Part shown: positions 3,071 through 27,162 of the stretch, piece by piece
Position numbering within the stretch: position 1 is the stretch's first letter
How the letters are laid out: each line of letters begins with the position of its first letter
The notes under the pieces: model-generated
The model's input: only the letters and a program-made list of their open reading frames with translations
What the model was told of the DNA's origin: nothing
Database searches by the model: none
From: Adhaeribacter aerolatus
GTDB taxonomy: Bacteria > Bacteroidota > Bacteroidia > Cytophagales > Hymenobacteraceae
Direction: 5' to 3'
Assembly: GCF_007991635.1 (NCBI RefSeq)
Contig: NZ_BJYS01000024.1
Location: 88,880-120,879, forward strand
Length of the DNA: 32,000 nucleotides
Translations under genes and position numbers: made by a program

Positions 3071-3777
3071 TCAGGTGCCACAAGCTCATTTTTGCTTTCC
3101 ACACAGTATCGTTTAAAGATACGTTGTACCTGGGTGGCTTGAAACGCGCCGCCTTTGCTGGCTCTAAATCCCGATTGGTTTAATTTTTCGGCAATGCTTA
3201 ACCAGGTCAGACCCTGTTCCCGGTAAAGACGAACTAATTCAGCGGCCCGCCTATTGTTATCATTGGTGGCGGCTTTCTTTTTAATAGCTTCCACCCCAAG
3301 CTCCCGACCGGCAGCAGTTAAATTATTTAAGTTGCCCAATTTCTGACCGCGGGCTTTCAAAGCCTGCAGGGCTACCTTGGTGCGTTTGCTGATTTGCTCC
3401 CGCTCGTGTTGGGCCATCGTTCCCCAGATACCAATGTTGAGGGTATTCATTTCGGGAATGTCCAGGCAGAGCCAACTAATGTTATTTTTCTCTACCCGCT
3501 TTTTCAATTGGAACAGAAAGGCCACTTCCCGGCTTAAGCGGTCGAGCTTGGCAATGATTAAAGTGGCATTGTGTTTCTTCGCTTCCAAGATGGCTTGTTC
3601 TAATAAAGGGCGGTCATCGTTTTTGCCGGATTCATTTTCCTTAAATTCCCGGATGATGCTGGCTGGATTTTTAGCGAAAGAAATAACCGCTGCCTGTTGG
3701 GCTTCCAGGCCCAACCCGCTCCGGCCCTGCTTGAGGGTAGACACCCGGTAGTAGGCAATGTACTTTTGATACTCCAT
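3055..3777 (-). CDS. Small serine recombinase (resolvase/invertase family) with C-terminal HTH
   Basis: 240 aa. The N-terminal 'IAYYRVSTLKQGRSGLGLEAQ' is the classic catalytic-serine motif (YxRVSTxxQ). 'LIIAKLDRLSREV' matches the conserved resolvase core. The C-terminal 'LTWLSIAEKLNQSGF' is HTH-like. Confidence 0.9.
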   Translation of the reverse strand: MEYQKYIAYYRVSTLKQGRSGLGLEAQQAAVISFAKNPASIIREFKENESGKNDDRPLLEQAILEAKKHNATLIIAKLDRLSREVAFLFQLKKRVEKNNISWLCLDIPEMNTLNIGIWGTMAQHEREQISKRTKVALQALKARGQKLGNLNNLTAAGRELGVEAIKKKAATNDNNRRAAELVRLYREQGLTWLSIAEKLNQSGFRASKGGAFQATQVQRIFKRYCVESKNELVAPDYLNT

Positions 3778-9488: not shown

Positions 9489-10044
9489 TTTGTAAACTGA
9501 ATTGCTTGTTTTCAGATTTAATCATTTCGTTTGGGATTTTGAGGCTATACTTATGGAATGACCTTGCTAATTTATACATAGCTCTCCATGAATACCATGA
9601 ATGGCTTAGTTCTACCAAGTCAATAGCCATATAATTGATTAAATCCTTATTTTTTGATTTTATTATTTGGAAAGAATTCAATATTTCCCTTTTTATAATT
9701 GGGTCTAAATTGGTAAAATACTCTTCACTATGTTCTTTAATAATATTTAATCTTTGGTTGGTTATCTCACAATAATTTAAATTTTCCAAATTTTTATAAA
9801 TATCGCTTTCTACATGGCCATAGGGCATTGCCCAGAAATTATCAAAAACACCCAGCAATCCATCCTCCCTTTCATTGGCGGTACTTGCACAGACAAAGAA
9901 GTGTAATTTAAGGACTTTAAGTCTGCTCAGATCATTTTTGTCTAACCCTTCTTGATTATTTTGCTCTTTATACCAAGTGACTAACTGTTTTATAAAAAAT
10001 TCAAATGCTTTAATTTTGCAGGTAATTCCTTGTAGTTGAAGCAT
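9481..10044 (-). CDS. Panacea (DUF4065 / SocA-PanA-like) domain protein; candidate antitoxin
   Basis: 187 aa. 'LSRLKVLKLHFFVCA...GLLGVFDNFWAMPYGHVESDIYKNL' parallels the recalled Panacea pattern klqKLlYfa...f.AW.yGPV.p.vY. It is translationally coupled to the downstream 650-aa gene. Confidence 0.55.
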   Translation of the reverse strand: MLQLQGITCKIKAFEFFIKQLVTWYKEQNNQEGLDKNDLSRLKVLKLHFFVCASTANEREDGLLGVFDNFWAMPYGHVESDIYKNLENLNYCEITNQRLNIIKEHSEEYFTNLDPIIKREILNSFQIIKSKNKDLINYMAIDLVELSHSWYSWRAMYKLARSFHKYSLKIPNEMIKSENKQFSLQSA

Positions 10045-10576: not shown

Positions 10577-11431
10577 CTATTGCGTTAACCCTTTATCTAC
10601 TGGCGCCTCCAGGGCTACTTGCAACGGCTGAGAAAGCGAATTTAGTAAATCATAACCGGTTGCTCTTTCAATGGCATCGATACTGGTGCGGTAAGAACCC
10701 CAATCCGCCCGCACGGTTTGGCTGTTGGGCGTATTCACCGCGATGACTCGCGTGCTGCTAGTAATCCGGTTTAAATCATTCGGGCCTTCCGGCAGCACTA
10801 CCAGCACATTCCAGATTTGCGCCGGCACCGTGACCCGACCCGCAGTAAGGGTTTGTTTGGGGCCATTACTGCCAGTACCCCCGACCCCGTAATTGCCCAT
10901 GATAACATATACTTCATTACCAGCTTGGACTAAATCGCGGGTATACTCTTCCAGATTGGCCCACGTTTCCTGGTTATTGTTGGGAGCCTGGGGAATCATA
11001 TTGGTCATCAGGAAAGTCGCCGAATTATCTGCGGCTGACCTGGTTCTATCGGCGGAGGGTACATTGTGTCCCCGGTCAAAGCCACTGCCGCTATAAGCCG
11101 TTGGGGTTACCCGGTACCAGCCGGCTGGCAAGGTATTATCCGCCCGGAAATCATCCTGTCGGGGAGCATTGCCCAGCCAATCCGGACTCACGTGCCAGCT
11201 CACCCAATTAGGCGTGCCTCTATCCCGGCTTTAAGAAAGCGTGTACTGTGGTTTCTGTAGAAGAAAGTTATTCGCATTCACTTCGTCCGGGGTCGCCTGG
11301 CTGGGATTACCTAGCAACAGGTGCTCGTAGGGAATCAAATCTTTGGGAGCCGTGGGTGTTACTTCGCTTTCCTGACAGCCGGTAATCAGTAAGAGCAGGA
11401 AGAATAGAAGGTAAAGGTTTTTGTGGAACAT
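10577..11431 (-). pseudogene. DNA/RNA non-specific endonuclease (NucA / Endonuclease_NS family) lipoprotein gene, interrupted by a single in-frame TAA at 11231..11233
   Basis: The N-terminal ORF (11231..11431) carries a lipoprotein signal 'LLLLITGC'. The C-terminal ORF (10577..11203) carries the 'FDRGHNVPSADR' DRGH active-site motif. 11431-11203 = 228 = 3x76, so both are in the same frame. The 27 nt between them read SRDRGTPNW with no further stop. Confidence 0.8.
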
Positions 11432-11922: not shown

Positions 11923-13650
11923 TTAAAGCCTTTCGCTTTTTATAAAAAATTTTTCAACCGTGCTTTTTACTTTGCTGTAATTGTTTTCTTCTAATAATTT
12001 AAGCAAGCTCTGTCCATCATAAAAAGCATTTAAATTTTGTGGTTTAAATGAACCATTGTTTATTCCGTTTAAAAAATTTATACCGTCTTCATAAAAGGAA
12101 GCAGAAGTAATAAAACAACCTCTGAATTTTTTCCCAGTATCTTGAATTTCTTTTTGAAAATGCCTTTTTGCAAATGGCAAAGTACGTCTAAAAAACCAGC
12201 TTAGAGTGTTTTTAGTATCTGAACTACCAATAGGAATTTTTGATAATGAAGAGTACCCTTTTAGTTCAACTATCAAAATCTCATTAGGGTTAGAAGATTT
12301 AATAATATAATCATACTCATAATTTTCTTTTCCACCCTCAGGCTTTACTATTGATAAAGTCTTACCATGTAGAATTTCTGCACTACTATAATAGTGCTTT
12401 AGTAGTGGATACAATAGGAATTCAAATAAAACTCCTCGTATGTCTTTTAAGCTATCTTCTTGTCCAGATGTTCTAATCGTAGTTAGTGCAGATTCAATTG
12501 TTACATTAAAGTCATCACTTATTGCAGCCACTTTTTTTAGCTGTAAAATGTTGAGCTTTTCGACAACATCGTAAATTGTTGTTCCAAAAATAGACCCTAA
12601 ATCAAAAGCAATAAATCCCAGTGAGCTTATTTTCTCTAAAACATCTACTGCTATTGTCTTGTAAATAATGATAGGAAGAATTTTGCGCCTTCCATTTTTA
12701 ACAGCATTTAAATTAATTTGTATCCTATTATAAAAACCGTCAAGATCTATTTGGGAGTAGTCTCTACTGATAACTACGTCTAAGACAACTAAGGTTTGTT
12801 TCTCTATAGTATCCGCTTTTTTCCCAAAGGTTGAGTTTATTCCAGTTGTTTTGGTATAGGCGAAAGCATCCCAAACCAAATTATTTTGCTTTGCGCCAAT
12901 TGAAGGTGTTTTCTTGTTGCGGTAAATTGTCTTGTAATTATCTATTATATTACTTTTTTGTAACCACCGCAGAATGTCTGGTAAAAACATCCCATCTATA
13001 ACCATCTTAGAAAAGTGAGCGCTTAGTAAGCTTTCTTCCTTACCTTCTTCCTTTTTACTTTCTTCCTTTAAAATATATTTGATATTATTTGAATCAGTCT
13101 TTTCATATATAAATTTCATTAATCTAAGCTCTTTTATTATTTCATCCAGTGTATTTACCTTTGTAGATGATTTTTCAAGTGGAGCAGCGACGATCTTTAA
13201 TGCTTCATAGTAGGATATAACTCCGTCATTTATATCAATTGCTTCTAACAATCGATAAATTGGTGGGCGATGCTTTTTAGAAACTTCTTTAACCAGGGAT
13301 AGAGTTAACCCATCCCTAGGATTTAAATATATAAATTGACCATTACCAAAGCTTAAGGGATTAGATGAGACGAGTATTCCTTTAACAACAGTTCGTTGAA
13401 TGATTTTTCTAGCATTATCATCCTTTATCTGGAATGTGTTTACTAACTCTTTGGTTAACTCCTTGCCTGAAAGATATCTTTTATCACTAATAAGCTTAGC
13501 TATATAAACCTCATATTGATTGAGTTCATTACTAAGTAGCTTTAATGTTTCTTGTCCCACTGCCCTTATAAATTTTATATTGCTAAATATACCGCAAACG
13601 TAAAAAGTTGAAATGTTGTAGTTTTTATTTAATAACATATTGTTAATCAA
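11923..13650 (-). CDS. 575-aa protein with a winged-helix-like N-terminal region and a C-terminal Mrr-like PD-(D/E)xK restriction-endonuclease domain
   Basis: The C-terminal 171 aa (about 11926..12438) read 'FEFLLYPLL' (helix Glu), 'YEYDYIIKS' (Asp strand), 'ILIVELKGY' (ExK), then 'GCFITSASFYEDGINFL...FYDGQSLLKLLEEN'. This parallels the Mrr_cat pattern fiTts.Ft..A..fa...liDg..L..ll. GC is about 30%. Confidence 0.6.
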   Translation of the reverse strand: MINNMLLNKNYNISTFYVCGIFSNIKFIRAVGQETLKLLSNELNQYEVYIAKLISDKRYLSGKELTKELVNTFQIKDDNARKIIQRTVVKGILVSSNPLSFGNGQFIYLNPRDGLTLSLVKEVSKKHRPPIYRLLEAIDINDGVISYYEALKIVAAPLEKSSTKVNTLDEIIKELRLMKFIYEKTDSNNIKYILKEESKKEEGKEESLLSAHFSKMVIDGMFLPDILRWLQKSNIIDNYKTIYRNKKTPSIGAKQNNLVWDAFAYTKTTGINSTFGKKADTIEKQTLVVLDVVISRDYSQIDLDGFYNRIQINLNAVKNGRRKILPIIIYKTIAVDVLEKISSLGFIAFDLGSIFGTTIYDVVEKLNILQLKKVAAISDDFNVTIESALTTIRTSGQEDSLKDIRGVLFEFLLYPLLKHYYSSAEILHGKTLSIVKPEGGKENYEYDYIIKSSNPNEILIVELKGYSSLSKIPIGSSDTKNTLSWFFRRTLPFAKRHFQKEIQDTGKKFRGCFITSASFYEDGINFLNGINNGSFKPQNLNAFYDGQSLLKLLEENNYSKVKSTVEKFFIKSERL

Positions 13651-14108
13651 ATACTTATTTTTTTAATTAGATAAATATTTGGTCCGTAATGCATTTTAAT
13701 ACTTAATAATTGTCACACCAGTAATTTAACAAGTATAATTGTCCTTATGATAGCATGCCAAGACACCCTGGTACATGAGGCGTGCGAGGCTGTCTGCTGA
13801 AGCATGTGGCTTATATGGATTGTGTGTACCCAGCATGGTACGGGTATATTTTGGAAGGAATATACTCAGATTATCCAGCGGGTGCAAATACCGTATTGGC
13901 GAGCCGCAAGCTGGTTTACCACAGGTTAAGCAGTAGAGGACCGAGCACGGGAGTGCGAAGGTGCGGCTGCCTCAGGATAGCCCAAGATAGAGCAGGAGAA
14001 GAAGCAGTAGCACCAGATTCAGGAACGGGAGCAACGAACTGGGGCCGCGGCATTAGAAAGTAGAGAGGTAGTGTCTAAGAAAGAGTGTAAATGGGTTCGG
14101 GAGTGTAT

Positions 14109-16136
14109 TTAGATCCTCAAAAAAGTAATCTCGCAATCTTTGCACTTCCGTTTTTCCTGATAAAGGTCAGCAGCATTAAATTTACCCTCGTACCGATCGA
14201 AAATATCAAGCCCGCGGCCCAGGTTTATTTTCCAGCCATTATCGGCCATAATGCTGCGGTCATGGACACTCCTGAACTCATAGGTTAAGTGTATACCTAT
14301 ATCAACCATGTTTTCTTTTAGGTCATCAAAATTGGCAATAGCTTCGGCCATGCGGTCTTCCGTATTCCAGGTTACAATATGCAAGTCTATCTCCTCATCG
14401 GGTTCCTTTATTTGTTCCAGCATAATGCAAAACTCCAGCAGGTTTTTAAACTGGTAATGCATTCGGATATATGGGTCCTGCAGAGTAATTTTGGAAGCGC
14501 CTTTCAAGTGTTGACCGAATAGCTTCCGATAAGAAATACCTGTTTGGTTATCCTTGATTAAGACCTGGTGCGGAGATGGATTTGCTTTAGATTCCTGGAT
14601 TACAAAATCATTCGTTTCATTTAGAGCCTCCTCTTTTTCCTCGGCCTCTTTTTTCTTATCCTTCAGGGCCGCCAAGTAATTTTGCATTTCCAGCGTTTCA
14701 ATAGATACTTCCCGACCACTAGCTTTTAATCGGTAGGTAAAATTAACCGGTTCGTTGCGGAAAGTTTCGTCAATGATGTATAACTGGTCCTTAACCCGCT
14801 TTCGGCCTTCTATGGCAAAATTGAGCAGCTCAATCAATTCATCCTGTGTTAATTCTTTGTGCGGATATAGTAATTTTACCAGTCCGGAAAATGACTTTCG
14901 GATAGCAGTTTTATCACGGGTAGATAAGGAACCGTCCAAATCTATAACCTGGTCCATTAAACCACTATAATCCGCTTTTCGCAGTTCGCGCAGGATTTCA
15001 GCTATGTAATCTACTATAAAACCATAGCTCGTGGAGAAAACCGAGTTCTTCAGAATTTTCACTTCCCAACCGGGTATGTACATATGCATCCGGTCCAGGA
15101 AAGCGCCTTTAATGTATCCGTCCGGGATGGATTCAAATAAATGGGAGTTCTTCAGCATGTAAGGCACCGTATGTTTGGTATTGCCGACAAAAGCTAAAGA
15201 AGCTGTAGCTTGGTAAGTCTCCTTGCCTCGGTTGAAGGATTGGTTAGCCATGTAGTTTTGCATAATTTTAACCAAATCACCGTCCACCCGGCGCCCTCCT
15301 ACTTCCTGCTCAAACTCGTCTAAAGCAATCACATCCCAGTATCCGACCAAGCCAATGCGGTTACCAGTATTATTTACAAATAACCTAGCTTTAGAAACAT
15401 CCCCACCAGAAACCAAAACACCATGCGGGGAAAGCTCCGAAAAAATATGGGATTTACCGGTTCCTTTTGGACCAAGCTCAATAAAATTGTAATTGTTTTC
15501 TACGTGCGTAATTAGCCTTGAAATCTGGATTAGTTTTCCTCGCTTGTTAAAAAACTCGGGGTTTAATCCTATACTGTGCATGAGCAAGTCTAGCCATTCA
15601 TCACTAGTGAACTCCTTTCGGGCCTCCAGGTAATCATCAAGCCTTACATTAGAAACCTGGATAGGTTTTATATCTTCTATCAACCAGCGCACCTGGGCAT
15701 CAGCCGCATGGGTGTACCCCATGGTTAGTATACACCACACACCGCCACCACTTAGCAGTTTCTGGTGCTCCATCACCATTTTATCAGCTATTGGTACATG
15801 GTTGATACCTAAATTGGCAAACTCGGCCTCGTAAATATTAGCCCTATCATTAAGGGAAACATTTACTTTATCGATGATTTTATAACTGCCCTGCTGCCGG
15901 ATGGTTGACTTTACTATTTCGGCTTCGCTTCTATGAACGTAATTATTTTTAATAACCGTTTTTACTTTCTCAATACCCGCTTTTATAATTTCTTCATCAT
16001 TAATAGCACAGTACTGTCCCAGTAAATATTCCAACACATAAGTAGGTACCACGGCATTGCCTTTAACACTGGAGGTTAAATCTTTGCGTACTACTTTCCC
16101 TTCAAAGTATTTTAAAATTTTATCTTGTAATTCCAT
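14109..16136 (-). CDS. brxL: BREX BrxL: BrxL N-domain plus AAA+ ATPase, with a non-canonical MIT_C/PLD-fold C-terminal domain
   Basis: The N-terminus 'FEGKVVRKDLTSSVKGNAVVPTYVLEYLLGQYC' is the BrxL signature. Walker A is 'GPKGTGKSH' and Walker B is 'VIALDEFE'. It is the last gene of the BREX operon. Its start overlaps the pglZ stop by 1 nt (TAATG). Confidence 0.85.
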   Translation of the reverse strand: MELQDKILKYFEGKVVRKDLTSSVKGNAVVPTYVLEYLLGQYCAINDEEIIKAGIEKVKTVIKNNYVHRSEAEIVKSTIRQQGSYKIIDKVNVSLNDRANIYEAEFANLGINHVPIADKMVMEHQKLLSGGGVWCILTMGYTHAADAQVRWLIEDIKPIQVSNVRLDDYLEARKEFTSDEWLDLLMHSIGLNPEFFNKRGKLIQISRLITHVENNYNFIELGPKGTGKSHIFSELSPHGVLVSGGDVSKARLFVNNTGNRIGLVGYWDVIALDEFEQEVGGRRVDGDLVKIMQNYMANQSFNRGKETYQATASLAFVGNTKHTVPYMLKNSHLFESIPDGYIKGAFLDRMHMYIPGWEVKILKNSVFSTSYGFIVDYIAEILRELRKADYSGLMDQVIDLDGSLSTRDKTAIRKSFSGLVKLLYPHKELTQDELIELLNFAIEGRKRVKDQLYIIDETFRNEPVNFTYRLKASGREVSIETLEMQNYLAALKDKKKEAEEKEEALNETNDFVIQESKANPSPHQVLIKDNQTGISYRKLFGQHLKGASKITLQDPYIRMHYQFKNLLEFCIMLEQIKEPDEEIDLHIVTWNTEDRMAEAIANFDDLKENMVDIGIHLTYEFRSVHDRSIMADNGWKINLGRGLDIFDRYEGKFNAADLYQEKRKCKDCEITFLRI
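14112..14570 (-). other. Segment encoding the BrxL C-terminal 153 aa: MITD1 C-terminal (MIT_C) PLD-like domain homologue
   Basis: 'NQTGISYRKLF...ITLQDPYIRMHYQFKNLLEFCIML...IDLHIVT...VHDRSIMADNGWKINLGRGLDIF' lines up motif-for-motif with human MITD1 as I recall it ('ATGFSYESLF...[22 protein letters not shown]...IHLLTS...[23 protein letters not shown]'). A K/E-rich linker precedes it. Confidence 0.7.
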
Positions 16137-18676
16137 TAAAAGTCTTGCTCAATCAGGGTATTGTTACTTACCGGTTCTTCAATTAAAGTATTCAGGTTAT
16201 CTTCTTTATCAAAAATCTTGAGCTTCAGATAAGTCTCCTGCGCGGCTGAATGCAACAAATTAAATTCTAATTTGTAGATGCGCTCAGTAGGCATACTAGA
16301 AGTTGAATTTAATAACAGGTTTGCTTCGTTGCTAACCAGTTCGGAATTTTTGTATATACCTGCCACTAACTCTCGTTCTTTCTCGGTCCGGGATACCTTG
16401 TTTTCCTGGAGGATACTTACCCGCATCACATTAGATACAATTTTGAGCGGAGCACTCTTTACCAAAACCGGTTTCACTTTCTGGGTAATATCCTGACGCT
16501 TCCGGGAGCTCTCAATAACCGGCACAACCAGTTCCTGTAAGCTGCCACCCCCATGCACAAACTGGTGTCCTACTCCCTGCTTTTTATACCGGTTAACCGA
16601 TGCCGGTATAACCACGGATAAAGAATCAGTAAAAAGAGAGGTAGCCGATAATTGTATCTTATAACCCAAGGTTGGTTGCCCCAAATCATCCACTATCTCA
16701 TACCGGTTATGGGTAGTAACTGCTTTTAAACCTGTGGCATTTTCCTTATCTTTTTCATCTATTTCCCGGTCATTGAATATGAACCCATGGTCAGCGGTGA
16801 TAATGACCCGGGCAACATTCAAGGAGCCATGTAATTTCTTCACCAATAATTTTAATTCCTCAACAGCTTCTTTGGCGGCAGTTAAAGTTTTACGCTCAGA
16901 TACCTTTTTGTCCCCAATCATATCAATGGCATCGTGGTAAATGTAAACCAGCTTAGCCTTAAATATCTCCCTATTCTGCTCCTGATTGTTCTGTTGGATA
17001 TCTGAAAATGGAACTACTCTTGCCTCTGGTTCCGCTTCAGTCAGCAATTTTTCCCGGTTTTCCAAGCCACTTGTAGAGAGTCCATCGATGGTAATGGCTC
17101 CCTGGTTGAATGCGAACTTTTTACCCGGGAGTAACTGTGCCATACCAATACTGGTTTTAGATGGTATAGAAGCTAATTGGTAGCGTATATCGGCGCTGTT
17201 TTTAGGGTCGCCGTGTAGTTCGGACAGCAATTCTTCTGCTACTTCATAGCGCAATGCATCAGAAATAATAACCACTAATTTTTGTTCAAAAGGCTCTATT
17301 TCCCTTTTATAAAACTCGTACTGCTTCGGAATATTTAGCCCTTTATAATCAAATTGATAGGCATTTAGACATTTTAACCATTCCCGATTACTTTTCTCCA
17401 GGAATTCTTCATAACGCTTGTTTACTAGACCAACCAGCTCTTCAAGTTTTATGTGGGTAGGAATTTCGGTATCATCCATACTCCGGTAAGCACACAAAGC
17501 CCGTCGATAAGCCTGGTCAATTTTATACCATTCCGAAGTATAAACTTTTACATAATCTTCTGGTTTATCTAAGATGTAACTGGAGATAGAATTTACCAGC
17601 TTCATCATTTCGGCGGCATGCAGCATAAAAGTTAGGCAACTATTCAGAGAAGCAGTGGTTGGCTCGGATGTACTTATTTTTTCCAGCCATTGGATAACAG
17701 CTTGTGGGTTATAATCCAGGTTTGCTGCCTGCTCAGCTATTAGTTGCCATTTCATGGGTAGGGTGTAAAAGGCAAAATCGGCCGTGGCTCCGTAAATCTC
17801 CAGCAGCTTAAGCTCCTGAACTGAGCCGGCGTTTACCTCAACGGCTTCCTGAAATTGTGCTCCTAAACCATCTTTCCGGGCTGCTTCTTCCTGCAACTGG
17901 TTCAGGCGGCTAAGTACTGCTGCCTTTTTAATTTTAAGACTTTTATAAGGATCTTCGGCAGCTGCATCCGGAATAAACTGGGCAAGGGAATTGTACTTAA
18001 AAACCTTTAATAGGTTGGCAAGCTTATCCGGCTCCAATTCATTTATTTCCTGGTCGAAATGTTGCTTTATTTGTTTGTTGAGCCACTCCAACAAATTGTT
18101 TTCGCGCACTTTCCGACCTACACGCTTTAGTTCTTCTTCTTGGCCGGGTCGTAGCAACGAAAACAATTTTGCCAACAGCAAGGACCAGTTTTCCGGAGCC
18201 TTAAATTTAAGGAATGCCGAAAATAAAGCCTGAACCAAGTTGGCCTCATCTAAAGACTCAGGTTTAAGTATGGGAGCACAAACTTCCTGCACCGAGCTGT
18301 ATTTCAGCTCGCGCATGTAGCGCTTTATAAGTGGCTGATGGTGGCGCTGCAACCGGTACTCTTCCATAAAAGCAGCTTCATCGTCTAGCAATAATTCTTT
18401 GTTGGCCAGGAGCAAATCCAGCAAAGGGAAGTTCAAGTATTCATCCTGTTTTTTGGGGCTCTCTTGGTTTAGGTACAAAAATACTTTTTGCTGTTTCCAC
18501 TCACCATGCAGCATGGCTTTCATGTAGAAATAGTTTTGTTGAAACTGAACTACCCGGATATCTTTTAAGGCTAATGCCGCTACCTCTTCTTTAAAATCTG
18601 CTTCTTTATCAAAAAAAAACAACACCCGTAATTGGGGGTGTGTTCGATAATATTTCTCTATTTTCTCCTGCAGCAT
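16136..18676 (-). CDS. pglZ: BREX PglZ (alkaline-phosphatase-superfamily PglZ domain protein)
   Basis: 846 aa. 'VVIISDALRYEVAEEL' and 'VIITADHGF' are PglZ / alkaline-phosphatase-type metal-site motifs. It sits between pglX and brxL. Confidence 0.9.
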   Translation of the reverse strand: MLQEKIEKYYRTHPQLRVLFFFDKEADFKEEVAALALKDIRVVQFQQNYFYMKAMLHGEWKQQKVFLYLNQESPKKQDEYLNFPLLDLLLANKELLLDDEAAFMEEYRLQRHHQPLIKRYMRELKYSSVQEVCAPILKPESLDEANLVQALFSAFLKFKAPENWSLLLAKLFSLLRPGQEEELKRVGRKVRENNLLEWLNKQIKQHFDQEINELEPDKLANLLKVFKYNSLAQFIPDAAAEDPYKSLKIKKAAVLSRLNQLQEEAARKDGLGAQFQEAVEVNAGSVQELKLLEIYGATADFAFYTLPMKWQLIAEQAANLDYNPQAVIQWLEKISTSEPTTASLNSCLTFMLHAAEMMKLVNSISSYILDKPEDYVKVYTSEWYKIDQAYRRALCAYRSMDDTEIPTHIKLEELVGLVNKRYEEFLEKSNREWLKCLNAYQFDYKGLNIPKQYEFYKREIEPFEQKLVVIISDALRYEVAEELLSELHGDPKNSADIRYQLASIPSKTSIGMAQLLPGKKFAFNQGAITIDGLSTSGLENREKLLTEAEPEARVVPFSDIQQNNQEQNREIFKAKLVYIYHDAIDMIGDKKVSERKTLTAAKEAVEELKLLVKKLHGSLNVARVIITADHGFIFNDREIDEKDKENATGLKAVTTHNRYEIVDDLGQPTLGYKIQLSATSLFTDSLSVVIPASVNRYKKQGVGHQFVHGGGSLQELVVPVIESSRKRQDITQKVKPVLVKSAPLKIVSNVMRVSILQENKVSRTEKERELVAGIYKNSELVSNEANLLLNSTSSMPTERIYKLEFNLLHSAAQETYLKLKIFDKEDNLNTLIEEPVSNNTLIEQDF

Positions 18677-18718: not shown

Positions 18719-21700
18719 TTACTTAATAGGGGCTACTACGCCTTTAAATAATTCGTAATTAGCAGTAACGCCATTATCCAAGTCAAACTCAATTTGTTGA
18801 TCGGCTTTATCCTTAAGCAGTAAATCGTATTGCTCACATTCTAGCAAATCTTTCCGCAGCTTATCTAGTTGCCGTGCTTCCGTCCGACCTAGGGCTGCTC
18901 CTTGAATTTCTAATTGGTCAATATGCTGGTTTAGATACTGCATATGGGGCAACAAATATTTGTCCCGAATTTTGCCTACCGTAAATCGATTCATGCGGTG
19001 CATGTATACCAAAACCTGAAAAGCACCTTTAGGCGAGGTGAACAACCAATATATTGGTTTCTTTTTATACGTACGCACATGGTCTTTCCAGAAATCACGC
19101 ACCAGATATTGCTCCAGGTCCTGGTTCAGACATTCCTGCAGGAAGTTCATGTTTATCGTTAAGGTTTCTTCGCCCCAAATAATTTCTATAAAATGAACTG
19201 TACGGTGAAGTACATCATCTGTGAAGCGACAGGACTTACCCATTAATGGTAGGATAGCGTCCTCATCAATAGAAAAGGCTAATTCTTTTGTACCAATGTG
19301 CAAAGGAGAAGCAATAGCATAAGAGGCGATTTCTTCTGGTGCAGGATTAGGATATGCGATTTGTAAGCCTGGCTTGTCCAATCGATATCGCCCTATAAAG
19401 CAGCCAATCGCATAAGAAATGAGCTGCTTTAACACTACATCTCTTTTGATAGGTAATTCAATCCTATCCCGATTTCCCTCACGAAATTTCAATTCTATTT
19501 TTTTGAGTTGATCATAATATAACTCATCCTGAAATAATGTAATTTGACTTAATGGCACTTCTGGATTTAGTTCCTCTTGAAGGCCATAAAGATTTATATA
19601 ATATTGATTTAATTGCTCTTCATTTTTAAGAACTTTAAAGAAATCTGTAGTAATTGCATTTAACCACTTTTTAAAACTTTCCTCCAAGCTGATGTCACAA
19701 CTTGTTAAAGAGGATATGTTAAAGTCCCAGCTTGTTTCTCTTGTATCCCAATCTTTTTTCGATATTTCAACATTTTCATTAATTAAAGTTCGTTTAACTT
19801 CATTAATACCATTGTTTAACAAATCTTGAATTATAGGAAAATCTCCGACGGTTCCAACTTCGAACTTTTGTCCAGGTGCAATAAGGCTAAAGATATGTTT
19901 ACTTACATTACTATTTAAAAGCCCTAACAAAGCTTTTTGGTCAAAAGCATTGAAAATTTTTGGACCAACAGCCTGCATCAGCTTCCCTTCACCAGTTTCT
20001 CTCGCGGCAAAACCACTTCTACTCACATCATTCCATGACAATCCATCAGCAAAATTGTAACTTATATTTTGGGGTCTAGATCTAAGTTTTCCTTTACTAT
20101 CTTTAAAGCTTCTAATTTCTTTGCCATCATCCTGCCAGTCCATAATTGCATACAAATTTCCATACCACTTGCGATAGTCTCCACCTCTTACTACAGGGAA
20201 CCACTTACCTTCATTAAACATGTTCGGTCTACCGAAGAGGTTAATTTTTCTACTATCTACTTCCCACCAGCTTCTAATAAATTTGTCATCATCTCCAGTC
20301 GTAATTCCTTTTCTTGGTTCTGCTACCGTTCTAAGATTGACTGATTTTTTATATGCTTCAATTACATTCGTACTCATCCAATAGACGAAGGGTGCAGACG
20401 GTATGTCTAAAAATATTTTTTGTTTAGCCGTATAAAAGCCAAAATCTTGATTAAAGAACCTAGCTTGCTTAATACTTGGAGCCTCAACCTTTACATGATG
20501 GTGATAGAGCTTTCTGTAAATTCCAACTTCACTATTATCACTTGTTTTTAAGACATTAAAGGCTACGGTACCAAAATCTGATCCGAATATACCTCTCCCA
20601 AAATCTAACAAACTTTTAATAAAAGTAGAAGTTAGCAACAACTCTCTTAAATCAACAAACGAGTCCTTTGTAAGCCAAGATGCTATGTTTATAATTGAAA
20701 TAGCACCATTATTTTTTGCTAGAGCTAAACAGACCTCCATAAATACAGTCATCAAATCTAGCTTTGATTTTATGTACTTATTCTCAATATAGGCTTTGAG
20801 GTTACCGTTCATATTAGACCTCCCCATGTATGGTGGGTTCGCTGCCACGGCCTCGTACTTTATCGTCAGTTGCTCCAGCACATTTATAAACGGACGAATC
20901 TTAGGCAGAACGGCCTCTTCAGAGAATTCCCTAAAAGGCTTAATCTCCAGCTCATCGAAGCGCTTAAGAATGAATTCCAGCTCCTTAGGCTTTAGGGAGA
21001 ACTGCATGATGGAGCCAAGGTTCTGTGCATCCTGCATCAGTGTAAGTGCCTTTGTCAACGACTCCTCATAAGAAACACCTTCTTTACCTAAAAAGTCCAG
21101 TACTTCTTGTCTGCTAAATTGCGCTGGCTCTGGCATAGCATACACCCGCGGCAGAATACCGCTCTTCAGGACGCCTTTATTCTTAGAGGCAGCCTTAAGT
21201 AGAATTGCAAAGCGAGATAGCTGCGCAGCTCGTTTATCAATATCCAAACCAAATAGGTTGTTGTTGAGAATACTCTCTACGGCCTCTTCGGGCGGGTAAT
21301 ACTCTTCCAGGTACATCTGGTAAAGCAAATCAAACCCTTCTACTAAAATATGCCCGGAGCCAACAGCAGGATCCAGTAATTTAATATCTGCTACTTCCTT
21401 AATAATAGGGTTACTGTATTGTTGCTCCGGAGCTTCCACTAAGTAGCGCATTTCCTGCTTTAAGGAGCTCTCCGGATTCAGGTCCAGCCACAATTTGCCT
21501 ACGGTGTTTTGCACCATGTATTTTACAATCCAGTTAGGCGTAAAAATTTGAGTGGCGGCCGGAATATCCGCTGCTTCAGCTTTTTTATTTTTTTTAAAAC
21601 CGGCAAAAACCTCATCTTTCCTGTCAGAAATATAAAACTGGTATAACCAGCCTATCAGTTCTACTTGTTTGTAATCTTCCTCCGAGATGGCATCCGTTGT

Positions 21701-22351
21701 ATTAAGCAGGTGCAGGAATCCTTTTTCCGATAAAATATCGTTGGGCAAAAGCAGTTCGGTATAATCATCAATGCCGCCAAACACCCGGTTAAGCAAGGTA
21801 TGGCTGTGGCAATAGCCAATCAGCAGAATTCCGAATGCTTCTGTTTCCTTCTCAAAATCAGAAATTATGGTTTGCAGGCGCTGTCTTTCTTCTTTATTTA
21901 AAAAATCGTATTGGCCCCGGCGGGCTCTTTGCAGAATTACCGGCAATAAACTGGTACCTTCAGCATATTCCAGTTGGGGCAGGTCGTAGTTGTTTTGCGC
22001 CAATATTTTTATGGCCATCATGCGGTTAAACCAGGTATAGGCCGCCTCTTCCACTACTTCTTTTATGCCTTTACGGTTAATGGCAGCTTTTAGTGCTTTC
22101 CATTTGTTCGGCAAAGTAGCATCATCAAATACATTGCCCCGGAACATATATCCCCCAGCAATAGCTTGCGGTTCTTCGGTTATGGTTCCTTTTTTATCAA
22201 AGCCCCAGTACATTACTTTTCGCTCTACCCCGGCCAATAGTATGGTTCTTGCTTTTTGGGCAAAGGTTTTAAGCCTGGATGTATTTATGCCGCTCCGGGT
22301 TGTTGGTTTTACTTCTGTATTATCTATGGTAGTATCAAAATTTACATCCAT
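18719..22351 (-). CDS. pglX: BREX PglX (BrxX) N6-adenine DNA methyltransferase / specificity subunit
   Basis: 1210 aa. SAM motif I is 'LLDPAVGSGHIL'. Catalytic motif IV is 'AANPPYMG' (NPPY encoded at 20828..20839). Size and position are typical of type 1 BREX. Confidence 0.9.
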   Translation of the reverse strand: MDVNFDTTIDNTEVKPTTRSGINTSRLKTFAQKARTILLAGVERKVMYWGFDKKGTITEEPQAIAGGYMFRGNVFDDATLPNKWKALKAAINRKGIKEVVEEAAYTWFNRMMAIKILAQNNYDLPQLEYAEGTSLLPVILQRARRGQYDFLNKEERQRLQTIISDFEKETEAFGILLIGYCHSHTLLNRVFGGIDDYTELLLPNDILSEKGFLHLLNTTDAISEEDYKQVELIGWLYQFYISDRKDEVFAGFKKNKKAEAADIPAATQIFTPNWIVKYMVQNTVGKLWLDLNPESSLKQEMRYLVEAPEQQYSNPIIKEVADIKLLDPAVGSGHILVEGFDLLYQMYLEEYYPPEEAVESILNNNLFGLDIDKRAAQLSRFAILLKAASKNKGVLKSGILPRVYAMPEPAQFSRQEVLDFLGKEGVSYEESLTKALTLMQDAQNLGSIMQFSLKPKELEFILKRFDELEIKPFREFSEEAVLPKIRPFINVLEQLTIKYEAVAANPPYMGRSNMNGNLKAYIENKYIKSKLDLMTVFMEVCLALAKNNGAISIINIASWLTKDSFVDLRELLLTSTFIKSLLDFGRGIFGSDFGTVAFNVLKTSDNSEVGIYRKLYHHHVKVEAPSIKQARFFNQDFGFYTAKQKIFLDIPSAPFVYWMSTNVIEAYKKSVNLRTVAEPRKGITTGDDDKFIRSWWEVDSRKINLFGRPNMFNEGKWFPVVRGGDYRKWYGNLYAIMDWQDDGKEIRSFKDSKGKLRSRPQNISYNFADGLSWNDVSRSGFAARETGEGKLMQAVGPKIFNAFDQKALLGLLNSNVSKHIFSLIAPGQKFEVGTVGDFPIIQDLLNNGINEVKRTLINENVEISKKDWDTRETSWDFNISSLTSCDISLEESFKKWLNAITTDFFKVLKNEEQLNQYYINLYGLQEELNPEVPLSQITLFQDELYYDQLKKIELKFREGNRDRIELPIKRDVVLKQLISYAIGCFIGRYRLDKPGLQIAYPNPAPEEIASYAIASPLHIGTKELAFSIDEDAILPLMGKSCRFTDDVLHRTVHFIEIIWGEETLTINMNFLQECLNQDLEQYLVRDFWKDHVRTYKKKPIYWLFTSPKGAFQVLVYMHRMNRFTVGKIRDKYLLPHMQYLNQHIDQLEIQGAALGRTEARQLDKLRKDLLECEQYDLLLKDKADQQIEFDLDNGVTANYELFKGVVAPIK

Positions 22352-22361: not shown

Positions 22362-25300
22362 TTATTTGATGATTATGGTCTTGTTTTGCTGCAGCAGGGC
22401 CAGCATTTCTTTTCTAACTTTTTGTAAATATTCTTCTAATTCCTCTTCGGTTGATATTTTAGACTTAATGCCTGTAATGTAATATTCCTGAGGTTCGCCT
22501 ACTGGTGTTAGCTTAACGTCTACTCCGGTACCGTTTTCTTTTGGTAGTACAGCAGCCTTTTTAGAGGCATGCGCAACTATCTTCTTAAGCTCACTAGATT
22601 TAAACTCTGATAGTTGGGCTTTTTTTAATTTGAGGTCTGTTATTGCACTCAGCGCTTGAATTGTTTTTATAGTGCGGTCTTCATCCGAATAAATATGTGG
22701 CTCATTTACTGCATAGCTTTCTGCATCTTTTTTAAGCTCTGCGAAAACTTCTGTGTATTGCTGTACCACACCTGCCTTCAGATTTTCTACCAATTCTTTT
22801 AGCTCGGCTTTCAACTCGTCATAAGCCTTCCGCACATGCCGGAACTCAAACCTAGGGTCTTCTAATTTTAAAAATTCACCCATCTTCTCGGCTTTCTCCT
22901 GGGCTGAAGGGGGTAAGGCTTTGAAGTTTTGCTGGTTATCCTGGTAGAAGCGTTTAATAGCATCGTAGTCGGCACGGGCCCGGTTGGCAAAATCCTTCAT
23001 TCCTTTTGCCTTGTCGAAAAGTTCTTTTACAACCAACTTTTCATTCTCCAGCAACTGGAAGAGTTGTTTCGGATTACGTTTAGTAGCCCATTCCTGCAGC
23101 TTGTTCCGCAAGGAGTAGAAAGATTCGCCGAAAGGATACTTTCCATGGTAATCGTTCTCCAGCGAAATATATTCTTTACTAATTTGAACCAGCTTGGCTA
23201 TTATTAATTCGCTAAGCTCATTTCCATCTGATGTGGCTGATAAGTCCAGGTTAAAAACCTCCCGGAAATTCATGATGGCTTTATCAATGGTTTGCTGGTC
23301 TATTGCCTCCCCAGCTTTAACAATACAAACCGGCCGCTCCGGAGTAGACAAAGCTTTATTAATAAACTCAGTTACGGAGAAACGTGGCTGGTTCCGGTAT
23401 TCAAATTCCCGCTTCTTCTTTTTTACTAATTTAACCAGCATCTCCAGCACGGCAGTATCACGCCAGCCAAAAGGAGCCTTTTCAAAATGGTTTATTAAAT
23501 CGCTCACCGCAACCTGATTCCCATGATTGGAGATAAAATCATCAACCATTTGTTCGGGTGGGGTTAAATCAGGCATTTCCTGTTGCAAACTTGCCGCTGA
23601 GGTGCGCAGTTCTATAGCCGTTTTGGCATAACTTGCCGATAGCCTGTGGTACTTATAAACCCGTTCCAGGTGTTTATCTAGCAAGCTTCTGAAGCGATCA
23701 TGCGGCAGCGTTCCATTAATTTCATTTGCTTCTAAAACCTGCTGTCCGGATAAAAAGCGGGTTAAACTATAATTGTTTTCCAGCTTGGCAACCAGCTTTT
23801 TTCGAAGGTCTTCATTGCGAGCCCTGAATTTCTCCAGGGTATTGGATCTTTCTCCTGTGGCGGCTTCGGAGTTGTTCCGGAAATACTTTTTGGTTTTACA
23901 AAACCACTCAAAATCTGTTTTAAACTGAGCATCCTGGTGGTACCATTCATTTACGCAGATACATAAATCGTTCCCGCTGTTGTTTAAAGCTTTCTGCTGT
24001 ATATCACTGGTGTCTGTAAACAACACCGTTAATTTAAAATCACCCGAACGGAAAAACTCCTTATCATCTACAGCATAAGCTACTCTAAAATCGTTTTGCC
24101 CGAAAGTATGCTTTGGCGCTATTTTGGTTAACTTTCTAAAGAATTCATCAAACTCAGAAAGTTTGTCATCAAAACCAACATTTAAGCTCTTAATCATCAT
24201 CTGCACATCTATTTCATCTTCGTTAAAGAAGAAATAGCTGCCTTTCTCTTCCCGGATTATGCTTTCCTCAATTAGCTTATCCAGTACTTCTTTTATCTTG
24301 TTTTGCAACTGAAGCTTATTTTGGTCCACATCCGTCATCATCAAAACCGTTAGGTTATCCAAGTTAGAGGGGAAGGTAAGCAGCGTTGGCTGGGGCAGGT
24401 TGGAAATCATAAAGAGCGTTTTAACTACCCGCTCTGCAAAAAGATTATTTTTTACATAAGATAAAGTAAGCCCGTTATCAATGGCCCTCCGGCCACGGTG
24501 GGTTAGGTTAGTTAGAAATTGCTTGTTAAAAAAGGCATCAAAAGGCATAAAATGCCCTACCTCCACCTCAGCGTTTTGCTTAGCGGTATAGTGGGTTATA
24601 CCCAAAACTGAGCGTTCGTTATCTTTTACTTCTTTAATTACAAATCTTAGCGACTGGAAAGATTCGAATACATGAGCAATTAGTTTAAATTGGTAAGGAA
24701 CAAAAGGATAAGCCAGAATAAATTCCTCTTCCCGATGGTAACCTTTATAAAGCTCATGCCGCATTTTAAATTGGTTTTCGATGGCATCCTTTTTATCGCG
24801 GTACATTTTACCCAATACCTCAATGCCCTTAGAGTTTTTATCTAAAACCCTTTTTTGAGTAATGTATGAAGCATCATTGCTTTCCAGGGAAATTCGAGTA
24901 TCGAAGCGACCCAGAATCTTACCGAATTCATCCTGGACATCAACAGAGCCTTTTGCTCCCGAAGAAACATCGTCTAGGGTTTGCTGAGCCGTACAGGTAA
25001 TCCAGACTTGGTTATTGCAGTCTTCGCTTACTCTTTCTACTATGTTCTGGAAGTTAAGCAGGATTTCTTTGTTGGTACCAATATATTGCGATACCTCATC
25101 TACTAGGAACACTAGCCGGTAATCTTTATCTTTACCTTGTAAGAATTCTCTTAGCTCTGGAATAAGCGAGGAGGTAATACTTATTTTAAAAGTATCAGGA
25201 TTTGTAAGCTTGGCATGCAGTGCAACCGTATCTAATTCCGGGACCAACTGTTTAGCAATACCCAGGACACTTTCCAGCTCGTAAGAGGCTACATCTGCTG

Positions 25301-25910
25301 CATCCGACTTCCAATCGTGTCCAAGTTCATCTGTAACTAATTGCTTAAATTCTCCAAACTTACCTTTATTATCCAGGTATTTCTCAAACAGGAGAGCTAA
25401 CGGAATGTCATTGGGATTATAGCCCCGGAACTTGTTAAACATATTCAGGAAGATCCGGGTCAGGCGCTCACCACTGCCGTCATCCGTTTCATCCTCCACG
25501 TTAAACATAATATTATCACATGCTGCCTGGGCCATACGCTTCCGCATTAAGGCAACATTGCTGGGAGTAATATTCTCGTTTTTACCAGCCTTGGTGGTGT
25601 CATATTTCATTACCGCTTCCATGAAATGGTCCAGGGCAGACGTGGATGTTTCTGGATTAAGGCAGTAGTGGATGTACTTAATAAAGTGAGATTTTCCGGA
25701 CCCGTAGTAACCGTTTACCCAAATACCAGTTTTCCCTTTCTTTTTATTTTGTACCGTATCTAATATCAAGTACAATTTTTCAATGAGTTCATCGGTAAAG
25801 ATGTATTCATTAATTTCTGCTTTAACTGTCTCGGCATTCTTGTTACTAACTACAACGGCAGGATTAATATCCCTATCAATAGGTTTGTCGTAAATCTCCC
25901 TAATTTTCAT
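22362..25910 (-). CDS. brxC: BREX BrxC/PglY large P-loop ATPase
   Basis: 1182 aa. Walker A is 'GYYGSGKSHFIKY' near the N-terminus, and 'LVFLVDEVSQY' is Walker B-like. Size and operon position are canonical. Confidence 0.9.
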   Translation of the reverse strand: MKIREIYDKPIDRDINPAVVVSNKNAETVKAEINEYIFTDELIEKLYLILDTVQNKKKGKTGIWVNGYYGSGKSHFIKYIHYCLNPETSTSALDHFMEAVMKYDTTKAGKNENITPSNVALMRKRMAQAACDNIMFNVEDETDDGSGERLTRIFLNMFNKFRGYNPNDIPLALLFEKYLDNKGKFGEFKQLVTDELGHDWKSDAADVASYELESVLGIAKQLVPELDTVALHAKLTNPDTFKISITSSLIPELREFLQGKDKDYRLVFLVDEVSQYIGTNKEILLNFQNIVERVSEDCNNQVWITCTAQQTLDDVSSGAKGSVDVQDEFGKILGRFDTRISLESNDASYITQKRVLDKNSKGIEVLGKMYRDKKDAIENQFKMRHELYKGYHREEEFILAYPFVPYQFKLIAHVFESFQSLRFVIKEVKDNERSVLGITHYTAKQNAEVEVGHFMPFDAFFNKQFLTNLTHRGRRAIDNGLTLSYVKNNLFAERVVKTLFMISNLPQPTLLTFPSNLDNLTVLMMTDVDQNKLQLQNKIKEVLDKLIEESIIREEKGSYFFFNEDEIDVQMMIKSLNVGFDDKLSEFDEFFRKLTKIAPKHTFGQNDFRVAYAVDDKEFFRSGDFKLTVLFTDTSDIQQKALNNSGNDLCICVNEWYHQDAQFKTDFEWFCKTKKYFRNNSEAATGERSNTLEKFRARNEDLRKKLVAKLENNYSLTRFLSGQQVLEANEINGTLPHDRFRSLLDKHLERVYKYHRLSASYAKTAIELRTSAASLQQEMPDLTPPEQMVDDFISNHGNQVAVSDLINHFEKAPFGWRDTAVLEMLVKLVKKKKREFEYRNQPRFSVTEFINKALSTPERPVCIVKAGEAIDQQTIDKAIMNFREVFNLDLSATSDGNELSELIIAKLVQISKEYISLENDYHGKYPFGESFYSLRNKLQEWATKRNPKQLFQLLENEKLVVKELFDKAKGMKDFANRARADYDAIKRFYQDNQQNFKALPPSAQEKAEKMGEFLKLEDPRFEFRHVRKAYDELKAELKELVENLKAGVVQQYTEVFAELKKDAESYAVNEPHIYSDEDRTIKTIQALSAITDLKLKKAQLSEFKSSELKKIVAHASKKAAVLPKENGTGVDVKLTPVGEPQEYYITGIKSKISTEEELEEYLQKVRKEMLALLQQNKTIIIK

Positions 25911-25915
25911 GGGTA

Positions 25916-26506
25916 CTAATTGAGTAATTTTATGGCTCTATAAAGATTTTCGTCGTTTAGCAGACCGAAAAGGTTATAATGTTCCTTGGCCTCGCCTGGA
26001 TAAAAAAGGATAATCTTGTATCTGGACGAGATGTATTTCTCGAAATTGTTTAAAAACTTGCTAGCACGTAAATAAGGGAAAATAGCTCCAAAGCCATGTA
26101 CTAACACATAACCCACCTCAAAATCTCCTGATACACTAAAGTGTTCCTGAATTCTGGTATGGAGATAATTTATAAATCTATCACTATTGGCATCACGTTT
26201 CAGCGATTCATCCACTTTTTCAGGTTTAATTGTTTCTTGCTCCAGGAAGAACTCATACTTGGTTTTCTTTCCAAAATTATTTCCCTTCAAAAAGGAAAGA
26301 AACTCCTGAAAAATATCAATCACTAAAACATTTAAGTAGCTATTAGGCCTATAAAGCCTATCCCGGATATTCTGAATCTCTGCCTGGATTTGATATTCCT
26401 GCTCTGGATCATACATGTACATGTAAGCCGGAAAATACAAATTACCAGTTGTAGGATCCTGAAAGTCTTTATTGGCTAACTGTTCATACAGCTGCGTAAT
26501 TGTCAT
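25916..26506 (-). CDS. brxB: BREX BrxB (DUF1788)
   Basis: 196 aa. The N-terminal 'YFPAYMYMYDPEQEYQIQAEIQNIRDRL' fits the DUF1788 pattern. A 4-nt ATGA overlap with brxA and its position between brxA and brxC support the call. Confidence 0.8.
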   Translation of the reverse strand: MTITQLYEQLANKDFQDPTTGNLYFPAYMYMYDPEQEYQIQAEIQNIRDRLYRPNSYLNVLVIDIFQEFLSFLKGNNFGKKTKYEFFLEQETIKPEKVDESLKRDANSDRFINYLHTRIQEHFSVSGDFEVGYVLVHGFGAIFPYLRASKFLNNFEKYISSRYKIILFYPGEAKEHYNLFGLLNDENLYRAIKLLN

Positions 26507-27162
26507 AAATAAGCTTCTCTCTCTGTTTTATTTACAAAGCATGCTTCTAAAAACCAAAGGTCTCCAGCAGTCACAAAGAATTTCCAAAAGGAAGAAGAAA
26601 TATTTTCTGGTTTTCTAAGTTGGTTTCTACTCAAAAAACCTGCATCCTTCAGCATGGTCATGAACACCGAAATAATCTTATTCCGGGAGTTATCTGTCCA
26701 TCCAGCCACAGTAGCATCTTGGGAAACAATTTCATCCAAGCGCATTTGTAAATCGAACTTTTCCAGGTGGTAATCCAAAGTTCGCCACTTTTTAAGAACT
26801 ACCTCAAAATGAAAATTTAATAATAATGGGTAAGTCTTAAGAATTATGTAATACAAAGCTAACCTTTGCTCCTTTTCCTCTAATCCCTCAAAATAGAACC
26901 AAAACTCCCTGTCTACTGAACCTGCCCTATTCCTTAACTCGTTCGCAATTCTGGCCCTGGAAGCCTGAGCATTGATTTTTAGAAGTAGGTTTTCTTTTAC
27001 TTCTTTTTCTAAAAGCTCTTTGAAGGAGGGTTCTTTAAGTAGGGGTAGAACAGCCCTAAATTCATTAAATAGCAATGCTCCACCCATAAACGAGGCATTG
27101 TATTTAGGTTTTGGTGCTGGTTTGTTATTCAAGGGTCGGCGTAAATGCAAATTCTCACCCAA
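26503..27162 (-). CDS. brxA: BREX BrxA (DUF1819); start codon uncertain (TTG at 27162; first ATG is codon 26)
   Basis: About 200-219 aa and the first gene of the operon. 'YNASFMGGALLFNEFRAVLPLL' fits the recalled BrxA N-terminal pattern and lies upstream of the first ATG. This argues for a non-ATG start. Confidence 0.75.
   Translation of the reverse strand: MGENLHLRRPLNNKPAPKPKYNASFMGGALLFNEFRAVLPLLKEPSFKELLEKEVKENLLLKINAQASRARIANELRNRAGSVDREFWFYFEGLEEKEQRLALYYIILKTYPLLLNFHFEVVLKKWRTLDYHLEKFDLQMRLDEIVSQDATVAGWTDNSRNKIISVFMTMLKDAGFLSRNQLRKPENISSSFWKFFVTAGDLWFLEACFVNKTEREAYL

Follow-up and report, generated by a model that had tools for sequence, protein, structure and literature searches.

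What occupies the C-terminal end of BrxL from Adhaeribacter aerolatus, where a Lon-protease-like domain is expected, and could it give this component of a bacteriophage exclusion (BREX) system an enzymatic function? The protein is encoded by an open reading frame (ORF) of 675 codons plus stop at positions 14109..16136, on the minus strand, of a 32,000-nucleotide stretch of contig NZ_BJYS01000024.1 (the window, which is all the DNA analysed here). An original prediction, made from the sequence letters, had proposed that this BrxL ends in a domain like that of human MITD1. We find, with near certainty, that the protein belongs, as BrxL, to a complete type-1 BREX operon and that its tail is a MIT_C domain of phospholipase D (PLD) fold with an HxR(x)4D motif, an architecture that defines an already described subclass. 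A review of the field asks what BrxL targets.

Operon and domain architecture

The brxL gene, matched by the PADLOC model PDLC02508 and NCBIfam TIGR02688, is the last gene of a contiguous brxA-brxB-brxC-pglX-pglZ-brxL series, all on the minus strand. The five upstream genes are PADLOC matches: brxA (26503..27162, 219 residues, expectation value (E) 2.4e-37), brxB (25916..26506, 196 residues, E 7.3e-47), brxC (22362..25910, 1182 residues, E 8e-248), the methyltransferase gene pglX (18719..22351, 1210 residues, E 0, 1123 bits) and pglZ (16136..18676, 846 residues, E 6.5e-143). Because these five identified genes lie directly upstream, contiguous and on the same strand, we assign the ORF to BrxL and the six genes to one complete type-1 BREX operon.

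The original prediction assigned the first ~470 residues to BrxL, and Pfam agrees. There is a BrxL_N domain at residues 9-141 (15714..16112; PF20442, E 3.7e-48) and an MCM-like AAA+ ATPase domain, BrxL_ATPase, at residues 151-462 (14751..15686; PF13337, E 6.8e-122), and the translation contains the Walker A sequence GPKGTGKS (15450-15473) and the Walker B sequence ALDEFE (15309-15326). The linker that follows, residues 470-532 (14541..14729), was delineated from sequence, consensus and an AlphaFold2 model, and consists of a conserved short beta-hairpin, a variable K/E-rich helix, a low-confidence segment and the start of the PLD fold. The K/E-rich part foreseen by the prediction lies at residues ~487-512, the consensus is variable over ~490-520, and residues 503-517 have a predicted local distance difference test score (pLDDT) below 50 in the full-length model. 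We note that this full-length model was used for the linker only, as residues 215-363 of the ATPase core, although matched by Pfam at 1e-122, also have pLDDT below 50. A shallow alignment, with 56 sequences of 71-89% identity, probably accounts for this, and we regard it as a technical caveat.

The C-terminal domain (CTD), residues 533-673 (14118..14540), is MIT_C (PF16565) by Pfam, by alignment to MITD1 (2YMB) and by Foldseek. The Pfam match covers profile positions 1-141 of 142 with E 2.1e-38 and 131.9 bits, compared with a cut-off of 25, and the tail alone (14112-14570, residues 523-675) matches MIT_C at 1e-39. No Lon_C match is found by Pfam anywhere in the 675-residue protein, even at E<=1. 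Profile searching thus places the tail in MIT_C and not in Lon_C, as predicted. All the motifs named in the prediction are present: TGISYRKLF, DPYIR..YQ..N.LEFC.ML, HDRSIMADNGWKINLGRGLDIF and a C-terminal Cys, which is part of a CKDC sequence. Four of these elements recur below. They are DPYIR (D554-R558, 14463..14477), located after strand beta2 and defined by alignment conservation; HDRSIMAD, an HxR(x)4D sequence (H625, R627, D632; 14241..14264) defined by conservation and by hhalign to the nuclease Nuc; GRGLD (G640-D644, 14205..14219), defined by conservation and hhalign; and CKDC (C665, C668; 14133..14144), defined by homologue alignment, with its first Cys common to MITD1. The coordinates of motifs and domains were checked by translation.

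Larger family models give the same picture. The protein passes NCBIfam TIGR02688, which has 449 positions and represents the N and ATPase parts (566.6 vs a cut-off of 329.3), and fails TIGR02653, the 675-position model of Lon-related BrxL (563 vs 628), aligning to model positions 3-478 only. The 698-position PDLC02508 model of PADLOC-DB (2023) matches residues 2-674 with E 4.7e-279, and its positions 540-694 match the tail alone at 1.6e-44. Three other assignments were set aside. A degenerate Lon_C domain was rejected because neither Pfam nor the comparison with E. coli HS BrxL detects similarity; a chance resemblance to MITD1 was rejected at E values of 1e-21 to 1e-39; and two weak matches of the tail, DUF5452 (E 0.01) and a PADLOC CARF model (E 2.6e-4), were considered to carry no information.

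Replacement of the Lon-like domain

Structural and sequence comparisons with canonical BrxL proteins locate the point of exchange. Acinetobacter BrxL (8EMC/8EMH) aligns to residues 2-456 only (E 3e-131 to 8EMC). BrxL of E. coli HS (WP_001193073.1, from NC_009800.1) is composed of BrxL_N, BrxL_ATPase and Lon_C (1e-13) and is 45% identical to the Adhaeribacter protein over residues 9-468, with no detectable similarity between the two beyond ~residue 468. Neither of these well-studied proteins has a MIT_C domain, so that neither of the outcomes named in the prediction as refuting it was seen. No complete E. coli genome gave a blastn match to the brxL DNA. Salmonella StySA BrxL also carries Pfam Lon_C (PMC9009780). 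These alignments place the tail swap at ~residue 470.

The cores of the two types also differ. In a tblastn search of plasmid records, cores of MIT_C-type proteins are 54-79% identical to that of the window protein, and cores of Lon-type proteins are at most 49% identical. Because the core identities separate in this way, the two tail types appear to follow largely two old BrxL lineages, which are also the two NCBIfam models. Hymenobacter monticola has a MIT_C-type protein that diverges further (core 41% identical), a hint of more than one MIT_C-type lineage.

Relation of the tail to MITD1 and the PLD fold

Human MITD1 (2YMB/4A5Z) is the best sequence match of the tail in the PDB, aligning to residues 508-669 with E 2.6e-21, and DPYIR, HDR, NGW and GRGLD are conserved between the two. 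An AlphaFold2 model of residues 513-675 has pLDDT 85.4 and a predicted template modelling (TM) score of 0.81. Its top Foldseek match is the MITD1 C-terminal domain (4A5Z/2YMB; E 2.6e-16, TM 0.79-0.83, 30% identity), as the prediction had anticipated. The matches that follow are PLD2, PLD1, vaccinia F13, SauUSI, a Streptomyces PLD, TDP1 and PLD3 (E 7e-5 to 7e-3), with E 7e-5 for PLD2 and 1e-3 for the nuclease SauUSI (7CLG), and the top matches in a viral structure library are PLD phosphodiesterase proteins. The modelled tail is a PLD alpha/beta fold of the MIT_C family.

MITD1 is described as a membrane-binding dimer, and its structure entries contain several chains each. Its N-terminal MIT domain binds ESCRT-III and acts in cytokinesis. 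The C-terminal domain, in work attributed to Hadders (2012), is said to bind phosphoinositide-containing membranes.

Prevalence and annotation

The architecture is common, not rare, and had already been described in papers of 2025 and 2026. Li et al. (NAR 2025, PMC12065111) described MIT_C in many BrxL proteins, for example WP_019470419.1, pointed out an HDR motif and the conserved D/E that follows beta2, and raised the hypothesis that MITD1 and BrxL are enzymes. A later survey found that BrxL of 1030 of 2913 type-1 BREX taxa has, instead of the Lon protease (LonP) domain, an 'HKD-endoDNase' with an HRD motif, which it predicts to be active; WP_205503389.1 is an example in its Fig. 2G (NAR 2026, PMC12839542). 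Nuclease or phosphodiesterase activity is a prediction in both papers (PMC12065111, PMC12839542). The supplements of the later one mention neither H3081 nor Adhaeribacter (PMC12839542). The proposal of a distinct BrxL subclass was correct, and the subclass accounts for about a third of type-1 BrxL proteins. The Adhaeribacter aerolatus protein is one more member of it.

All 120 best homologues (71-100% identity) contain PF20442, PF13337 and PF16565, and their hosts include Rufibacter, Algoriphagus, Flavobacterium, Lewinellaceae, Marinifilum, Lutibacter and Microcystis. By tblastn the tail is encoded in 25 plasmid records, nearly all under genes annotated brxL, from Bacteroidota, Alpha- and Gammaproteobacteria and Actinomycetota; the BrxL core is encoded in 317. 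Overall, MIT_C-type BrxL proteins occur across Bacteroidota, Proteobacteria, Actinomycetota, Cyanobacteria and Verrucomicrobiota. This broad phyletic picture rests on the plasmid tblastn searches and not on a scan of genome contigs with the single tail sequence, which found four close loci only (Rufibacter, Flavobacterium, Aquiflexum and one metagenome-assembled genome). A longer variant was seen in a Verrucomicrobiales metagenome-assembled genome: P0218 (MEN8713848.1) has 858 residues, with MIT_C at residues 540-685 and ~170 further residues after it.

Annotation does hide the domain, as the prediction had expected. MIT_C-type BrxL proteins are named 'BREX system Lon protease-like protein BrxL', 'ATP-dependent Lon protease' or 'hypothetical protein' in databases, and the 100% identical protein of the Adhaeribacter aerolatus source genome is 'hypothetical protein AAE02nite_32120'. 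Confirming the domain has practical value, as the current product names conceal it.

Conservation and fusion partners of MIT_C

A phmmer search with the 153-residue tail against 1.84 billion representatives gave 1057 matches at E<=1e-3 and 487 at E<=1e-10. Conservation was calculated from 133 MIT_C representatives at <=50% identity. H625 is 100% conserved, R627 and Q562 99%, D554 and D644 98%, T589 97%, R641 and R663 95%, and N565 92%. G642 (99%) and C665 (78%) are also widely kept, and D632 is D in 84% and N in 14%. Among MIT_C relatives the middle residue of H-x-R is D, G or A, and CKDC is invariant in 55 close BrxL homologues. The conserved set is polar and resembles an active site or a pocket.

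Pfam finds MIT_C in every one of the best 150 of the 1057 phmmer representatives, and a MIT domain in none. Their partner domains are BrxL_ATPase (26), BrxL_N (8), DUF2196 (6), BrxA (3), IF2_N (2), and PglZ, GmrSD_N, SLFN_AlbA_2, Helicase_C and S1 (1 each). MIT_C occurs as a mobile module in various fusions: P0211 has GmrSD_N (DUF262) followed by a C-terminal MIT_C, P0190 has Helicase_C and MIT_C, P0155 has a weak EVE domain and MIT_C, and others occur among P0121-P0270. GmrSD enzymes normally carry a nuclease domain at the C-terminus. The 790-residue metagenomic protein P0188 contains MIT_C twice in tandem, with H-G-R in each copy, and then five S1 RNA-binding domains; by analogy, this arrangement mimics the classical two-HKD PLD enzymes, with a nucleic-acid-binding tail added. 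Many other MIT_C proteins are of 170-370 residues with unassigned N-termini, and a recurrent N-domain with '...VWWLNI...' is seen in P0129, P0131 and P0132.

Judged from these domain combinations, the fusion partners of MIT_C point to nucleic acids over membranes. This turns away from the membrane side of the original, MITD1-like reading. Targeting to membrane or lipid as in MITD1, with acidic phospholipid binding that would hold BrxL at the inner membrane near the entry of phage DNA, is very improbable: the 30% identity and TM of ~0.8 to a domain reported to bind phosphoinositide-containing membranes are offset by the lack of any MIT domain or membrane-related partner in the best 150 prokaryotic representatives, whose partners handle DNA or RNA, by the DNA-encircling ring formed by BrxL (PMC10164562), and by the fact that the residues common to MITD1 are pocket residues and not an identified basic surface patch.

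Possible function of the tail

The HDRSIMAD sequence is one residue from the PLD signature HxK(x)4D, with identical spacing: the His and Asp are correctly placed, and 99% of the family has Arg where the signature has Lys. The original prediction had stated that there is no HKD motif (HDR, not HxK), which is literally true but undersells an HxR(x)4D motif whose His and Arg hardly vary in the family. Because this motif is the PLD signature with a Lys-to-Arg exchange, and because H625 and R627 are near-invariant, the MIT_C tail may be catalytic. The effector-like fusion positions and the tandem copies of P0188 also favor activity. So does the difference from Lon-type tails, in which the catalytic Ser-Lys dyad is reportedly gone (PMC12839542).

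We propose the following mechanism. The N-domain and the MCM-like AAA+ ring would load on unmodified phage DNA and travel along it, as in Lon-type BrxL. The MIT_C tails would pair as homodimers, in the manner of single-HKD PLD nucleases and of the ring-joining CTD-CTD contacts of Lon-type BrxL. Each tail pair may form a phosphate-binding pocket from H625, R627, D554, Q562, N565, R641, D644 and R663, and this pocket could act as a PLD-type phosphodiesterase or nuclease on DNA held in the ring. About a third of type-1 BREX systems would in that way gain a built-in cleavage effector besides PglZ. Taken as a whole, we hold this mechanism tentatively, at slightly less than an even chance.

The pairing step is supported by Acinetobacter BrxL, whose CTDs form ring-to-ring contacts: the isolated CTD is monomeric, and the assembled CTDs join two heptameric or hexameric rings tail to tail (PMC10164562). 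By analogy, a homodimerizing PLD-fold tail could take over the CTD pairing role of Lon-type BrxL, and this suggests that any activity of the tail would be gated by double-ring assembly on DNA. The 'different oligomerization logic' of the original prediction and the published nuclease idea can be reconciled in this way, because pairing also completes single-motif PLD sites. In single-motif PLD enzymes such as Nuc and BfiI, it is pairing that completes the active site. In its most specific form, tails of two different rings would meet at the equator of a double hexamer loaded on DNA and only then complete composite (HxR)2 PLD-type sites, with cleavage licensed by ring dimerization on unmodified phage DNA; we consider this form distinctly unlikely. 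The nuclease idea is already in print, and the assembly-gated version and the link to the CTD-CTD contacts of 8EMC are inferences of the present analysis.

Several observations weigh against catalysis. The element aligned with GSxN is GRGLD, in which the phosphate-binding Asn is replaced and an acidic residue is present; its alignment to GSFN of Nuc is of low confidence, and the exact equivalences are uncertain. When the MIT_C alignment was compared by hhalign with the single Nuc sequence of plasmid R46, VHDRSIMADN fell on QHDKVIIVDN, a placement of HDR on HDK that is suggestive but not significant (Prob 0.5, P 0.11). MITD1 keeps the pocket residues of the tail and is not known to have enzymatic activity. 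PLD1 K898R is a standard catalytically dead allele (PMC2172799). The published claim that the Lys-to-Arg exchange 'likely preserves' activity is not safe, because K898R inactivates PLD1, and that argument is weaker than stated. In Acinetobacter BrxL the CTDs are at the wide equator, distant from the DNA in the chamber (PMC10164562). The review reports no cleavage of DNA by type-1 BREX, whether in vivo or in vitro, and the system with Southern-blot evidence of non-cleavage is that of B. cereus H3081.97. The nuclease activity of MIT_C-type BrxL is a prediction.

Some of these points also fit a tail that serves assembly and not catalysis. Such a tail would replace the Lon-like CTD in the pairing of rings or subunits, its His, Arg and Asp would serve the interface or bind phosphate or DNA passively, and BREX would block replication without cleavage. 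The missing cleavage, the loss of the GSxN Asn and the effect of Lys-to-Arg in PLD1 are all in line with this explanation, as are the Lon-like CTDs of Acinetobacter BrxL, which drive tail-to-tail ring dimerization without catalytic residues, and the homologous domain of MITD1, which appears as several chains per structure entry and is known as a dimer. Type-4 BrxL, moreover, functions without any C-terminal domain (PMC12839542). However, interface residues are rarely a 98-100% identical polar set of His, Arg, Asp, Gln and Asn from bacteria to humans and across more than 10 unrelated fusion contexts. MIT_C also sits at the effector position in several of these contexts, for instance after GmrSD_N or a helicase C-domain, and occurs in standalone and tandem versions. 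We therefore judge a purely structural tail to be rather unlikely, while regarding it as the strongest competitor of the phosphodiesterase mechanism.

The same pocket could instead sense a phosphate ligand, or hydrolyze something other than DNA (a nucleotide, a signaling molecule, or a phosphorylated protein or DNA end, such as a PglZ-related phospho-intermediate), and regulate the ATPase ring. The pocket is unlike canonical HKD, with R for K, and R641 and D644 for S and N, which suggests altered chemistry; MIT_C is found alongside the PglZ phosphatase/nuclease family, with occasional fusions between them; and the CARF-type PADLOC model gives a weak match. This match is probably a generic alpha/beta similarity, however, and the fusion partners favor polymeric nucleic acid, which makes a ligand-sensing role improbable.

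If the tail is active as a phosphodiesterase or nuclease, many BREX systems carry a second, built-in nuclease, and what has been concluded from the Lon-type model systems of E. coli HS, Salmonella and Acinetobacter may fail to apply to roughly one third of type-1 systems. If the assembly-gated reading is true, that third would genuinely restrict phage by cutting DNA. Human MITD1 would then, by extension, have a hidden phosphodiesterase in its MIT_C domain and not a membrane adaptor alone. As the residues at issue are conserved in human MITD1, work on the bacterial protein could reveal an overlooked activity of a cytokinesis protein.

Neighboring genes

Directly downstream of brxL is a 575-residue ORF (11923-13650, minus strand) that is AT-rich, with a GC fraction of about 0.32 vs 0.42 in the BREX genes. 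Searches of Pfam, PADLOC and the PDB give no match for it, and the one match in NCBIfam is faint and GntR-like (E 7e-4). By eye, its C-terminus contains a PD-(D/E)xK-like pattern, 'YEYDYII...ILIVELKGY'. Auxiliary nucleases have been found adjoining BREX loci (PMC12839542), and the ORF could be one of this kind. The gap of 458 nucleotides between this gene and brxL (13651-14108) contains a stretch, ~13760-14060, that by eye is GC-richer than its flanks and holds a 93-residue ORF on the plus strand without a real family match. No Rfam match is found in the gap, and the GC-richer stretch is not repeated elsewhere in the window. Within it, an 82-nucleotide piece (13822-13903) has 85.5% identity to a site without annotation on a plasmid of Adhaeribacter radiodurans.

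Further downstream, a DNA/RNA non-specific endonuclease (PF01223, E 1.4e-44; 10577-11203, minus strand) has a GTG start codon and a match that begins at profile position 39; either its N-terminus is truncated, or the start and signal peptide were called wrongly. At 7536-10044, on the minus strand, a 187-residue protein and a 650-residue ORF overlap by 8 nucleotides. The former has a SocA/Panacea antitoxin domain, with matches in Pfam (3.5e-5, just below the cut-off) and NCBIfam (SocA_antitoxin, 1.2e-8, below the cut-off), and the latter is very AT-rich and has no family match. This pair may be a Panacea-type toxin-antitoxin system with a candidate toxin that belongs to no matched family. Window positions 70-1869, on the plus strand, hold an AbiEii nucleotidyltransferase toxin (PF08843, 4e-20) and, before it, a 257-residue ORF without a match that is probably its AbiEi partner. 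Nearby is a serine resolvase (PF00239, 4e-26; 3055-3777, minus strand). The window is a defense island, possibly a mobile one.

Comparison with known systems

Among PLD-fold proteins of phage defense, Li et al. likened PB-PLD1 of Menshen NsnC to MIT_C. A predicted effector, it has an HDR motif before beta5 and a D/E after beta2. It is another family (HHsearch probability 89% to MIT_C), is fused to ParB-like proteins and belongs to another defense system (Li et al. 2025, PMC12065111).

Nuc of IncN plasmids, BfiI and the nuclease domain of SauUSI share with the tail the PLD fold and one His motif per domain, so that completing a site would take a dimer. These single-HKD nucleases have Lys and GSxN, whereas the BrxL tail has Arg and GRGLD, and its similarity to Nuc is not significant.

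The C-terminal domain of human MITD1 belongs to the same Pfam family as the tail and has the C-terminal Cys in common with it, but has N at the position of D632. The two domains also differ in their partners, which are an N-terminal MIT domain in MITD1 and a DNA-loading AAA+ ring, within a phage-defense operon, in BrxL.

Lon-type BrxL proteins (Acinetobacter sp. 394, E. coli HS, Salmonella StySA) have a homologous N-domain and AAA+ core and the same place in the brxABC-pglXZ-brxL operon. After ~residue 470, however, their tail is an inactive Lon_C of ribosomal-S5-D2 fold, where the MIT_C type has a PLD fold.

The closest counterparts are the published MIT_C or 'HKD-endoDNase' BrxL variants (PDLC02508). 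The Adhaeribacter aerolatus protein agrees with them in architecture, HRD motif, operon position and subclass, with no difference of substance.

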